Source of the DNA: Escherichia coli
GTDB lineage: Bacteria > Pseudomonadota > Gammaproteobacteria > Enterobacterales > Enterobacteriaceae
Assembly: GCF_044647545.1 (NCBI RefSeq)
Contig: NZ_CP172818.1
DNA: 64,000 bases
Reading direction: 5' to 3' (one strand)
Below the pieces are notes generated by a model. That model was not told where the DNA came from. It saw only the letters and a list, made by a program, of their open reading frames with translations, and ran no database searches. Positions 2,583 to 53,728 of this stretch are shown in pieces. Position numbers and translations under genes: made by a program. Position 1 is the stretch's first letter. Each line of letters starts with the position of its first letter.

Positions 2583-3301
2583 CCGAGTTACCAATCGACG
2601 AAAACACGCCACGTATTTTGATCGTGGAAGATGAACCGAAGCTGGGGCAGTTACTCATTGATTATCTGCGTGCTGCGAGCTATGCGCCGACGCTTATCAG
2701 CCACGGCGATCAGGTACTGCCATATGTGCGCCAGACACCACCGGATCTGATCCTGTTGGATCTGATGCTCCCTGGCACCGATGGCCTGACGTTGTGTCGG
2801 GAGATTCGTCGTTTTTCTGACATTCCGATCGTGATGGTGACAGCAAAAATCGAAGAGATCGACCGCCTGCTCGGGCTGGAGATTGGCGCAGATGACTACA
2901 TCTGCAAACCGTACAGCCCACGGGAAGTGGTAGCGCGCGTCAAAACCATTTTGCGCCGTTGCAAACCGCAGCGTGAGTTGCAGCAACAGGATGCTGAAAG
3001 CCCGTTGATTATCGACGAAGGTCGTTTTCAGGCTTCATGGCGCGGAAAAATGCTTGACCTGACGCCTGCGGAATTTCGTCTGCTGAAAACGCTCTCTCAT
3101 GAACCAGGAAAAGTGTTCTCCCGCGAGCAGTTGCTGAACCATCTTTATGACGACTACCGCGTAGTAACCGACCGCACCATCGACAGCCACATTAAAAACC
3201 TGCGCCGCAAGCTGGAATCTCTCGACGCCGAACAGTCATTTATCCGCGCCGTTTACGGCGTCGGTTACCGCTGGGAAGCCGACGCCTGCCGCATCGTTTA
3301 A
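2579..3301 (+). CDS. baeR: OmpR-family response regulator BaeR
   Basis: 240 aa; receiver domain (ILIVEDEP ... [11 protein letters not shown]) plus winged-helix C-terminus; start overlaps baeS stop. Confidence 0.93.
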
Positions 3302-3480
3302 CATTTTTACCTGCCGGAGAAGGCATTCACGCCACATCCGGCAGCATTATCCCGCGCATTGTCGGCTATCTGACATTATCTCTCCGCCCTGGCAAGCACC
3401 TGAAAATCGCTCATACTTTAATCGGCAAACAGTCCTTTTAGATGCTGTTTTCGATACGCAATTTCAATCAAGGAGTCATT

Positions 3481-3813
3481 ATGGCTGGTTGGTTTGAACT
3501 CAGTAAGAGCAGTGATAATCAATTCCGGTTTGTGCTAAAAGCGGGCAATGGTGAGACTATCCTCACCAGCGAGCTGTATACCTCAAAAGCCTCTGCGGAA
3601 AAGGGCATCGCGTCGGTACGTAGCAACAGCCCGCAAGAAGAACGCTATGAGAAAAAAACGGCAAGCAACGGCAAATTCTATTTCAATCTGAAAGCCGCCA
3701 ATCATCAAATTATCGGCTCCAGCCAGATGTACGCCACCGCGCAATCTCGTGAAACCGGAATTGCCTCCGTTAAAGCCAATGGCACAAGCCAGACGGTAAA
3801 AGATAATACGTAA
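3481..3813 (+). CDS. yegP: DUF1508/UPF0339 family protein YegP
   Basis: 110 aa from ATG at 3481, preceded by AGGAG RBS; internally duplicated ~50-aa module; the longer ORF start at 3442 lacks an RBS. Confidence 0.8.
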   Translation: MAGWFELSKSSDNQFRFVLKAGNGETILTSELYTSKASAEKGIASVRSNSPQEERYEKKTASNGKFYFNLKAANHQIIGSSQMYATAQSRETGIASVKANGTSQTVKDNT

Positions 3814-3855
3814 TGACGATGCCGGGCGTGGGTTGTTGGCGTCCGGCTTTATATC

Positions 3856-4550
<695 letters not shown>

Positions 4551-49494: not shown

Positions 49495-50214
49495 TTACAG
49501 GCCAATCGCCTCTTTTAAGCTTTTCAGATAACGGCGGCTGACCGGCACGGTTAAGCCATTACGCAAAATCAACTCGGCCTGGCCGTTATCTTCCAGACGA
49601 ATCTCCTGTAAATGCGCGAGGTTAACCAGATACTGACGATGGCAGCGCAGTAATGGTGTACGACTTTCCAGGGTACGTAATGTCAGTTCGGTAAAGCCCT
49701 CTTTCCCTTCGTGACTGGTAACGTAGACACCGCTCATCCGACTGCTGACAAATGCCACATCTTTCATTTGCAGCAAATAAATCCGACTATGCCCCGTACA
49801 AGGGATAAATTTCAGCGCCTGTTGATTTTCCGGTAACAGCGAAACATCCTGCTTGCTGCGCTCCTGACGCAATCGCGCCAGCGTTTTCTCCAGTCGCACT
49901 TCATCAATTGGCTTCAGCAGATAATCAAAGGCATGTTCTTCAAAGGCTTTAATGGCGTATTCGTCAAACGCGGTGAGAAAAACAATATACGGGCGATGTT
50001 CCGGGTCGAGCATCCCCACCATTTCCAGACCACTGATGCGCGGCATCTGGATATCGAGAAACAGCACATCCGGGCGCAGTTTATGCACCGCGCCGATCCC
50101 TTCTACGGCGTTTGAACACTCTCCAACGATTTCAATATCGCTCTGCTCCTGCAAAAATACGCGCAGGTTCTCCCGTGCTAACGGTTCATCATCGACAATT
50201 AAGACTTTAATCAT
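49495..50214 (-). CDS. btsR: LytTR-family response regulator BtsR (YehT)
   Basis: 239 aa from [16 protein letters not shown]; receiver plus LytTR DNA-binding domain; start overlaps btsS stop. Confidence 0.92.
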
Positions 50215-51896
50215 GCCTCGTCCCTCCATGGTAGTCGTAACGTTATTCGGGTGTAACTATCAGGCTCACAGGCGACGCTTATCCCATAGTCATCGCCAAA
50301 CCGTTCACGTAAACGCTTATCCACCAGATTCATCCCCAGCCCACTGGCATTGGTTACCGGTTGATACAAACCGGCATTGTCTTCGATCTCCAGCATCAAA
50401 TGTTGCCCCTCACGTCGGGCGCTGATTGCCACTCGCCCTGTATCCAGCAGTTGTGATGTCCCATGTTTAATGGCGTTTTCCACTATCGGTTGCAGGGTAA
50501 ACGCGGGCAATTGCTGCTGGGATAATTCTTGCGGAATAGCAATGTTGACCTGCAACCGCGACTGGAAGCGCGCCTTTTCAATTTGCAGATAAGCGTTCAC
50601 ATGTTCAATTTCGTCGGCGAGAGTAACAAACTCCGAAGGCCGCTTTAAGTTTTTGCGGAAAAAAGTGGAAAGATACTGCACCAGCTGGCTGGCCTGTTCG
50701 CTGTCGCGGCGGATCACCGCTTTAATGGTGTTAAGCGCATTAAACAAAAAATGGGGATTCACCTGGGCGTGAAGCAGTTTGATCTCTGACTGGGTGAGCA
50801 TCGCTTTTTGCCGCTCATATTGCCCGGCGAGGATCTGCGCCGAAAGCAGTTGCGCAATCCCCTCGCCCAGCGTGCGGTTGATTGAACTGAATAAACGGTT
50901 TTTGGCTTCATACAATTTGATGGTACCCATCACTCGCTGATTTTCACCACGCAACGGAATGACCAGCGTCGACCCCAGTTTGCATTGCGGATGCAAAGAG
51001 CAACGGTAAGGCACTTCGTTGCCATCAGCGTAGACCACTTCACCGGTTTCAATCGCTTTTAAGGTATAAGTTGAAGAAATCGGTTTGCCGGGTAAATGGT
51101 GGTCGTCACCAATTCCGGTAAAGGCCAGCAATTTCTCTCGATCGGTAATCGCGACTGCACCAATATCCAGCTCCTGATACAGCACCTGTGCCACTTTCAT
51201 GCTGTTCTCTTCGTTAAACCCCTGGCGCAAAATGCCTTCCGTCGAGGCCGCCACTTTCAGCGCAGTGGCAGAAAAAGCCGAAGTGTATTTTTCAAACATC
51301 GCGCGTTTATCGAGCAATATACGCATAAACAGTGCCGCGCCGACGGTATTGGTGACCATCATTGGCGCAGCAATATTACTCACCAGACGCACCGCATCTT
51401 CATAAGGTCGGGCGATCGCCAGGATGATCAACATTTGCACCATTTCAGCGACGAACGTGACGGCACCGGCGGTAATGGGGTTAAAGACTTTATCAGTGCG
51501 CCCGCGACGGATCAGGATGCTGTGTACCAGGCCGCCGAGCAATCCTTCAACGATGGTCGAGATCATGCAACTTAGCGCGGTCATGCCCCCCATCGAATAT
51601 CGATGTAACCCGCCGGTCAGACCAACCAGCCCACCGACGACCGGACCGCCGAGTAAGCCGCCCATTACCGCGCCTATCGCACGGGTATTGGCAATAGAAT
51701 CGTCAATGTGCAACCCAAACCAGGTGCCCATGATGCAGAAGATGGAAAAGACGATGTAGCAGAGAAATTTATGCGGCAGACGAACCGTGACCTGCATTAG
51801 CGGTATGAATAATGGCGTTTTACTCATTAACCACGCAATGACTAAAAAAACGCACATCTGCTGAAGCAGCAGCAACACCAGATTAAAATCGTACAT
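50211..51896 (-). CDS. btsS: LytS-type sensor histidine kinase BtsS (YehU), pyruvate sensing
   Basis: 561 aa; 5TM-LytS N-terminus, GAF, His kinase core. Confidence 0.92.
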
Positions 51897-52117
51897 ACCC
51901 GCAAACCACACTTCCCTTTAAAACGCGTAACATACATTGCTTGCGTTTAACTTTCTTTGAACTCTTGCAGAAAAATGAGAATTCGTGAGTACGATCACTC
52001 AAAATCGCCTGGCAAAAATAAAATCACCCTATAGATGCACAAAAAACGGGCAAAACTACCTGGTTCGCAAAACTGCGTCTAAAGTTAAACCGGGACCTCG
52101 CGAGCAAGGGTGAGACG

Positions 52118-52849
52118 ATGGCGCTTTACACAATTGGTGAAGTGGCGTTGCTTTGTGATATTAACCCTGTCACGTTACGCGCGTGGCAGAGGCGTTACGG
52201 ATTGCTGAAACCGCAACGGACAGACGGCGGTCATCGGCTGTTCAATGATGCCGATATTGACCGTATCCGCGAGATCAAACGCTGGATCGACAACGGCGTG
52301 CAGGTCAGCAAAGTTAAAATGCTGCTCAGTAATGAAAATGTTGATGTGCAGAACGGCTGGCGCGATCAGCAAGAAACATTACTGACTTACCTGCAAAGCG
52401 GCAATCTGCATAGCCTGCGAACGTGGATCAAAGAGCGCGGTCAGGATTACCCCGCCCAGACACTCACCACGCACCTGTTTATTCCTCTGCGCCGACGACT
52501 TCAGTGCCAACAACCGACTCTCCAGGCGCTGCTGGCGATTCTCGACGGCGTACTGATCAACTACATCGCCATTTGCCTGGCTTCGGCACGTAAAAAACAG
52601 GGTAAAGATGCGCTGGTGGTTGGCTGGAATATTCACGATACCACCCGTCTGTGGCTGGAGGGCTGGATTGCCAGTCAACAAGGATGGCGCATTGATGTCC
52701 TCGCCCACTCGCTCAATCAACTACGCCCTGAACTGTTCGAAGGCCGTACATTGCTGGTGTGGTGCGGTGAAAATCGAACCTCTGCCCAACAGCAGCAACT
52801 CACCAGTTGGCAGGAACAAGGCCATGATATTTTCCCACTCGGCATTTAA
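52118..52849 (+). CDS. mlrA: MerR-family transcriptional regulator MlrA (YehV), curli/csgD activator
   Basis: 243 aa; N-terminal MerR HTH (YTIGEVALLCDINPVTLRAWQRRYGLL). Confidence 0.9.
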   Translation: MALYTIGEVALLCDINPVTLRAWQRRYGLLKPQRTDGGHRLFNDADIDRIREIKRWIDNGVQVSKVKMLLSNENVDVQNGWRDQQETLLTYLQSGNLHSLRTWIKERGQDYPAQTLTTHLFIPLRRRLQCQQPTLQALLAILDGVLINYIAICLASARKKQGKDALVVGWNIHDTTRLWLEGWIASQQGWRIDVLAHSLNQLRPELFEGRTLLVWCGENRTSAQQQQLTSWQEQGHDIFPLGI

Positions 52850-52908
52850 TGATTCGTTAACAAATGCGCTTTACTGTACAATCCTTTCGTTAACATAAGG
52901 AGTGCATT

Positions 52909-53016
52909 ATGCGCATAGCTAAAATTGGGGTCATCGCCCTGTTCCTGTTTATGGCGTTAGGTGGAATTGGTGGCGTCATGCTCGCAGGTTATACCTTTAT
53001 TTTGCGTGCTGGCTAA
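52909..53016 (+). CDS. yohO: Small membrane protein YohO (35 aa)
   Basis: ATG at 52909 with RBS TAAGGAG 8 nt upstream; encodes [35 protein letters not shown]; 3' end overlaps yehW 3' end on opposite strand by 20 bp; not in supplied ORF track (below length cutoff). Confidence 0.75.
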
Positions 53017-53728
53017 GTGCCTGCACCAGCCTTTCAAACAGGCGGTCTGCGATGATCGCCGCCAGTGCCACCAGTAACGCCCCCTGGATCACATACGCGG
53101 TATTAAATCCGCTAAGCCCGATGATGATCGGCGTACCCAGCGTGCTGGCCCCTACCGTTGAGGCGATCGTCGCCGTACCAATGTTGATAATCACCGAAGT
53201 TCGCACGCCCGCCAGAATCACCGGAGCCGCCAGCGGTAGCTCGACCTTACGCAGTCGCTGACCACGACTCATTCCCATACCTTTCGCAACTTCTGTCACG
53301 CTGGCATCAATCGCTCCCAGCCCGGCAAGTGTCGCCTGCAGGACGGGCAGCACGCCGTAAAGGATCAAGGCGATAATCGCGGGTTGCAGACCAAAGCCGA
53401 TCACCGGAACGGCAATCGCCAGCACTGCAACGGGCGGAAAAGTCTGCCCAACGGCGGCAATAGTTTCCACCAGTGGGCGAAATTCCGCGCCCCACGGGCG
53501 AGTGACCGCAATTCCGGCACCAGTACCAATGATCACCGCAAACAAACTCGAAATTCCCACCAGCCAGAAATGAGCCAGTGCCAGAGCTGCAAAACTCTCT
53601 TGCTGATAAACGGGTCGTGGCAGTTGTGGGAACAAGGCAGCAAACAGCGGCTGGCTGTAAGGTAGCCAGAAAATCAGCACCACAAACAGAGCAATCAGCC
53701 AGAACAGCGGATCGCGCAACATCTTCAT
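52997..53728 (-). CDS. yehW: Glycine betaine ABC transporter permease YehW
   Basis: 243 aa; ABC permease; operon osmF-yehYXW. Confidence 0.9.

Follow-up and report, generated by a model that had tools for sequence, protein, structure and literature searches.

Across the enterobacterial genera sampled, the small gene yohO runs tail to tail into the coding sequence of the transporter gene yehW, and intrinsic terminators are almost always absent from the junction. The best explanation of the evidence as a whole, in which we have considerable confidence, is that yohO is a real and translated gene whose product has a single transmembrane helix and that its overlap with yehW lacks a terminator; as the inferred parts of this explanation, the two genes would dampen each other's expression and the YohO helix would pack against another membrane protein. 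What this adds to the literature covered is modest, namely that the overlap is conserved, that it almost never carries a terminator, and that it evolves under the reading frame of yohO.

yohO and its product in the E. coli chromosome

The window, the whole stretch of 64,000 nucleotides that was analyzed, is a segment of the E. coli chromosome with an ordinary yohO allele. Several complete E. coli chromosomes match the 701 bases around yohO at 100% identity, and the region is present in 5423 of the 5426 complete genomes of the species. A preliminary description of the window had drawn attention to a hydrophobic ORF of 35 aa at 52909-53016, preceded by a strong ribosome-binding site, positioned after mlrA and overlapping the convergent yehW by its last 20 bp, and all of these observations held. 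The ORF listing places the yohO CDS at 52909..53016 on the + strand with an ATG start, and its hydrophobicity agrees with a Kyte-Doolittle score that peaks at 2.41 across 19 residues. The Shine-Dalgarno sequence AAGGAG can be read at 52897..52902 on the same strand, 6 nt 5' of the ATG. Upstream, and separated from yohO by a spacer of 59 nt, lies mlrA (52118..52849, + strand), a 243-aa ORF identified by both RefSeq and NCBIfam (NF011617, 551 bits). Facing yohO on the - strand is yehW (52997..53728), likewise a 243-aa ORF, which matches Pfam BPD_transp_1 at 3.7e-27 and whose product RefSeq names 'glycine betaine ABC transporter permease YehW'. Immediately upstream of yehW on its own strand are yehX, yehY and osmF, yehW being the last gene of the osmF-yehY-yehX-yehW operon in RefSeq.

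The overlap of the two genes is exactly 52997-53016 by ORF coordinates, and the RefSeq annotation of identical DNA has the same geometry. There, 'protein YohO' (WP_001216963.1) is encoded at 3310-3417 on the + strand and yehW at 3398-4129 on the - strand, in the gene order mlrA (+), yohO (+), yehW, yehX, yehY, osmF (all -), with the same overlap of 20 bp. The gene names proposed in the preliminary description (yohO, mlrA, yehW and osmF-yehYXW) are correct according to RefSeq, and YohO also according to NCBIfam: the peptide's residues 1-35 align with positions 1-35 of equivalog NF010225 at 80.1 bits (E 8.8e-23), above the curated cutoff of 57 bits. Homologs of YohO carry precomputed Pfam matches to PF27791, UPF0387_membrane. 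The gene is the same as yohO of E. coli K-12 (UPF0387; NF010225 / PRK13681; PF27791), with identical DNA and no difference in length, hydrophobic helix or position convergent to yehW. It is, in short, an ordinary gene that has already been annotated and published.

Its absence from the ORF track is likely due to a length threshold, since the ORF appears at a minimum of 20 aa and falls below the default minimum of 60 aa; a track with such a cutoff hides genuine small-protein genes. In the same listing, the btsS ORF (50211-51911, - strand) is given 566 aa from an upstream GTG as against 1686 nt, or 561 codons, in RefSeq, a trivial matter of start-codon choice.

On the evidence of the literature, YohO is translated. 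Tagged YohO is reportedly treated in papers of 2008 and 2010 by Hemm et al., whose evidence is second-hand here. A published Ribo-seq study describes coverage of yohO in the correct frame and counts YohO among the membrane-bound small proteins already known, citing Hemm et al. 2008. Top-down mass spectrometry in a 2025 study also picked up YohO, at a sequence coverage below 50%. The preliminary description had made its claim for the small ORF depend on a translation signal, and the published Ribo-seq and mass spectrometry data supply one. As it stands the gene itself matters little: almost all complete E. coli genomes carry its annotation, evidence that it is translated is in print, and the transcriptional overlap stands in a published catalogue.

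The protein is a single hydrophobic helix with a short basic N-terminus (R2, K5). An AF2 model has one helix over residues 3-33, broken at G19 into 3-18 and 20-33, with a mean pLDDT of 88.5, and a PDB search with YohO returned no matching chain. The residues M1, G19, G22, V23, M24, L25, G27, Y28 and I31 are invariant, so that within the aligned homologs a glycine-rich helix face (G19, G22-V23-M24-L25, G27-Y28) is unchanged throughout.

Conservation of the coding sequence

As many as 48 ORFs of at least 20 aa overlap the 3-kb stretch around yohO, so an ORF of 35 codons is not significant by itself, and the reality of yohO rests on conservation. We compared the yehW loci of 80 enterobacterial species representatives, from Escherichia, Citrobacter, Salmonella, Enterobacter, Klebsiella, Kosakonia, Leclercia, Lelliottia, Buttiauxella, Cedecea, Trabulsiella, Phytobacter, Pseudocitrobacter and other genera. 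A YohO homolog convergent to yehW was found at 79 of the 80 loci, and an intact ORF of 34-37 aa starting with ATG at 78 of them. All 78 intact loci have an AGGAG, GGAG or AGGA core within 20 nt 5' of the ATG, and AAGGAG is kept at 90% or more in the anchored consensus. The nucleotide sequences, 77 of them distinct, have entropies of 0.57, 0.20 and 1.25 at the first, second and third codon positions, and pN/pS is 0.27; the other two forward frames are broken by stops. Judged by these patterns, yohO is under purifying selection.

It could be supposed that the ORF is merely a frame left open by chance in the spacer between mlrA and yehW, from which no protein is made. Short ORFs are plentiful in these 3 kb, as the count above illustrates, and a Pfam search of the YohO peptide found no model for it in the copy used. 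Against this stand the conserved ATG and Shine-Dalgarno-like sequence at 78 of 80 species loci, variation dominated by wobble positions together with the low pN/pS and the stops in other frames, a match above the NCBIfam equivalog cutoff, and the published Ribo-seq and mass spectrometry evidence. We consider this supposition effectively refuted and give it almost no credence.

YohO belongs to a narrow family: when 1.84 billion representative proteins were searched exhaustively, 17 clusters came up at E <=0.001, most of which are truncated, frameshifted or chimeric forms of the same enterobacterial peptide. Individual loci merit brief mention. Enterobacterales bacterium CwR94 (L080) has a yehW locus without yohO, the sole such locus of the 80. 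In Citrobacter amalonaticus AUH_CA_2023_1 (L007, 3213-3320), an extra T in a T-run, by comparison with strain ku-bf3 (L061), shifts the frame of yohO; this may be a homopolymer error of sequencing or assembly, or a recent pseudogene. A record titled 'Chryseobacterium sp. 18061' (L078) contains a typical enterobacterial yehW/yohO/mlrA arrangement, with YehW and MlrA having 74% and 76% identity to their E. coli counterparts, and the assembly is probably contaminated or mislabelled.

The overlap of yohO and yehW

In the window, the 20 bp shared by the two strands (52997..53016) comprise yohO codons 30-35 with the stop codon and, in the other direction, the last five sense codons of yehW, part of a sixth, and its stop. 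Every one of the 78 intact loci has an overlap with yehW and none has a gap; the overlap measures 26 bp in 43 loci, 20 bp in 33 and 17 bp in 2. The pairing extends to the most divergent members of the family (P0014 and P0015), where the upstream neighbor of yohO is not mlrA: it is a metG-side cluster in one and a TonB-dependent receptor gene in the other, and in both yohO overlaps a yehW-type permease gene by 20 bp. Because the pairing with yehW is kept where the other flank changes, yohO travels with the transporter operon and not with mlrA.

Within the shared bases the usual variation of yehW is turned around. Upstream of the overlap the entropy of its three codon positions is about 0.5, 0.25 and 1.1. 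Inside the overlap this pattern is inverted, the values being 0.24, 0.81 and 0.48 in the 20-bp class and 0.06, 0.75 and 0.10 in the 26-bp class. Position 2 of yehW there faces position 3 of yohO, and it follows from the inversion and this register that the variation in the shared bases sits at the wobble positions of yohO. It is the tail of YehW that takes the amino-acid changes, ending variously in ..SQHAK, ..TRHVK or ..RHRREQ. By this measure of substitution, yohO is the more constrained of the two genes in the bases they share.

A consensus scan found no intrinsic terminator between yohO and yehW in the window; the sole candidate on the + strand is inside yohO and weak, with 6 pairs of which 3 are G-C. 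Scanned by the same criteria, none of the 78 loci has a terminator-like site within 250 nt 3' of yohO, and 5 of the 78 have a weak one 3' of yehW, four of these more than 200 nt away. The yehW locus of CwR94, which is without yohO, has a canonical terminator (3226-3290), ACGGGGCCGTAGCCCCGT followed by a T-run, directly after yehW, with a stem of 7 bp that includes 6 G-C pairs. Beyond this terminator lies a large convergent ORF. The locus may resemble the state before yohO arose, or the state after its loss.

With overlapping coding sequences and hardly ever a terminator at the junction, yohO and yehW must give full-length mRNAs whose 3' ends are complementary. The idea of transcriptional overlap between these convergent genes, also put forward in the preliminary description, is sound but already published. 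The ExcludonFinder paper (PMC12288877) includes yohO-yehW in its list for E. coli MG1655, which has 165 convergent excludons, each called in at least 50% of 58 RNA-seq samples; such a call is near-automatic for overlapping coding sequences if both genes are expressed, and it shows overlapping transcripts, not an effect on expression. An excludon is defined in the same paper as an arrangement in which one gene, when activated, represses its neighbor, whether by interference or by RNase III cutting the RNA duplex (PMC12288877). The yohO-yehW junction is like the members of this class in being a convergent pair with overlapping transcripts, with almost no intrinsic terminator in any species compared. 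It differs in that the coding sequences themselves overlap, beyond the untranslated regions, and, whereas the class is named for mutually exclusive expression and RNase III processing, yohO-yehW is known from overlapping transcripts alone. As to the conditions of expression, the transporter operon falls within the RpoS regulon, osmF having been listed among the core RpoS-dependent genes with a citation of Checroun and Gutierrez 2004, and OsmF-YehYXW has been described as a putative osmoprotectant importer.

Each RNA polymerase, too, must run on into the opposite gene unless stopped by Rho or by collision. On the analogy of the convergent excludon, yohO and osmF-yehYXW would dampen each other, either because the polymerases collide or because the RNA duplex is degraded. 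Such reciprocal dampening is a reasonable inference, but compaction could just as well have left the overlap frozen in place; in the literature we found no experiment that measured whether transcription of either gene affects the other.

The overlap might, then, have been conserved with no regulatory role at all. An unconstrained YehW tail would simply run on to the first stop codon that occurs antisense to yohO, and the architecture would then freeze the pairing, because once the coding sequences overlap any rearrangement that separated them would damage one of the genes. A variable YehW tail and substitutions that follow the yohO frame are what would be expected of such a passive tail. The length of the overlap depends on the clade (17, 20 or 26 bp), so that its exact geometry is not preserved; convergent overlaps are common in this genome, as the number of convergent excludons listed for MG1655 illustrates; and we found no published phenotype that connects yohO with yehW. 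The regularity of the arrangement speaks for something more, with all 78 intact loci overlapped and lacking a terminator across many genera and three upstream neighborhoods, and with the only yehW locus that lacks yohO having a canonical terminator. This would fit selection on the arrangement, though lock-in can produce it too. We regard a purely frozen overlap as a real possibility, one to which we lend somewhat less than even weight.

What may deserve follow-up is this junction: a tail-to-tail overlap, almost always terminator-less, in every enterobacterial genus sampled, also where the upstream neighbor differs, with the yohO frame governing how the shared bases evolve. If the coupling is functional, YohO gains a function and the low-profile OsmF-YehYXW transporter gains a regulator. 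The pair would also offer a clean test case of whether conserved coding overlaps at convergent genes act as regulatory devices.

Several other leads at the junction were set aside. The + strand of the window from 52850 to 53130 folds far better than shuffled controls (z -4.09 and -3.77), through pairing of the core of yohO with a stretch antisense to yehW. This did not extend to a conserved long-range structure of the yohO mRNA: 15 other species gave z values from +1.08 to -2.67, the close relative Escherichia sp. E1V33 had -1.97, and the strong fold of this strain is probably incidental. The idea that yohO arose by inverted duplication of the end of yehW was rejected, the inverted repeats being at most 20 nt long and 70% complementary, as was homology between YohO and YehW, for which BLASTP gave E = 2.6 over 7 residues. 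A search of the zone for known RNA families in Rfam at E <=1 gave only a meaningless match of 15.6 bits elsewhere in yehW.

Possible roles of YohO and signals upstream of its gene

KdpF, CydX, AcrZ and MgtS are small membrane proteins of one helix each, which bind to larger complexes of transport or respiration. YohO resembles them in its size, theirs being roughly 30-50 aa, its one transmembrane helix, its conserved small-residue face and its linkage to membrane transport genes. The genes for KdpF and CydX lie in the operon of the partner, on the same strand, which is not so for all such small proteins; yohO, unlike them, lies on the strand opposite osmF-yehYXW. The likeness is one of resemblance only, and by this analogy YohO would pack its glycine face against a larger membrane protein, as other single-helix small proteins do.

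The conserved pairing of yohO with yehW suggests, from gene order, that YohO and the OsmF-YehYXW transporter are functionally connected, although the overlap itself could enforce a linkage seen at all 78 intact loci. Taken further, YohO might be a dedicated accessory or regulatory subunit of the transporter that binds YehW or YehY through its glycine-rich face, the pairing of the genes then reflecting shared function. This is compatible with the explanation that we favor. In its support, yohO stays beside yehW where the mlrA flank has been replaced by the metG-side cluster or the TonB-dependent receptor gene, no YohO homolog turned up other than beside a yehW-type gene, and the invariant small-residue motif is of the kind that could serve helix-helix packing. 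The arrangement of the genes, however, argues the other way: yohO lies opposite the transporter genes and is not cotranscribed with them, an excludon predicts opposite rather than joint expression, and the overlap lock alone can explain the linkage. The literature yielded no interaction, uptake or phenotype data, and no solved structure contains YohO. We consider a dedicated subunit unlikely.

The two ideas can also be combined. YohO would then be a lineage-restricted, dedicated partner of OsmF-YehYXW, and the terminator-less overlap, conserved across Enterobacteriaceae, a switch that makes synthesis of YohO and of the transporter reciprocal. Were this true, the gene of a small-protein modulator would lie antisense to the last part of the operon that encodes its target, but we think the combination improbable.

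In the literature covered we found neither a function nor a partner for YohO or UPF0387. The gene was a match in the first round only of an overexpression screen for D-alanine export, and it has a value of -2.96 in an RNA-seq table on anaerobiosis and FNR in Shigella; neither result assigns a function.

Returning to how yohO might be expressed, we found conserved sequences ahead of it. At all 78 loci, including those where mlrA is not the neighbor (L082-L089), a hexamer that agrees with TATAAT in at least 5 of its 6 positions lies upstream of yohO; at 74 of the 78 its distance to the ATG, counted from its start, is 31-33 nt. In the window, conservation points to TACAAT at 52877..52882 on the + strand as the candidate -10 element. 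This conserved -10 came to light only through the comparison across species: the consensus scan had offered no standard sigma-70 promoter for yohO on the + strand, with no -35 match at 16-18 nt, and on the - strand it returned one sigma-70-like site inside yohO, which is at chance level (1 found, 0.5 expected).

The direct repeat TTCGTTAACA occurs twice on the + strand, once at 52853..52862, where its TTAACA stands 14 nt upstream of the -10, and again at 52886..52895, immediately 5' of the Shine-Dalgarno sequence. TTAACA upstream of the -10 (at least 5 of 6 matches) is present at all 78 loci, with the 14-nt spacer in 61 of the 78. The 'ttaaca' of the second copy, just 5' of AAGGAG, is at least 70% conserved in the anchored consensus and is seen in L082-L089 too. 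A distance of 14 nt from TTAACA to the -10 is too short for a normal -35, and the motif could be an oddly spaced -35 or a site for a regulator. These conserved motifs suggest that yohO is served by a promoter of its own, perhaps together with a site for a regulator.

Transcription from mlrA may contribute as well. On the + strand the consensus scan gave nothing terminator-like from mlrA to yohO (52849 to 52909), so read-through from mlrA into yohO is possible. A predicted fold of the + strand at 52864-52916 pairs UCCUU (52882-52886) with AAGGA of the Shine-Dalgarno sequence (52897-52901), in a hairpin closed by AUGCGC/GCGCAU. Because the anti-Shine-Dalgarno arm lies at or upstream of the likely transcription start of yohO, the hairpin would form only in read-through transcripts from mlrA, and, if the modeled structure is right, it could keep those transcripts from serving yohO translation.
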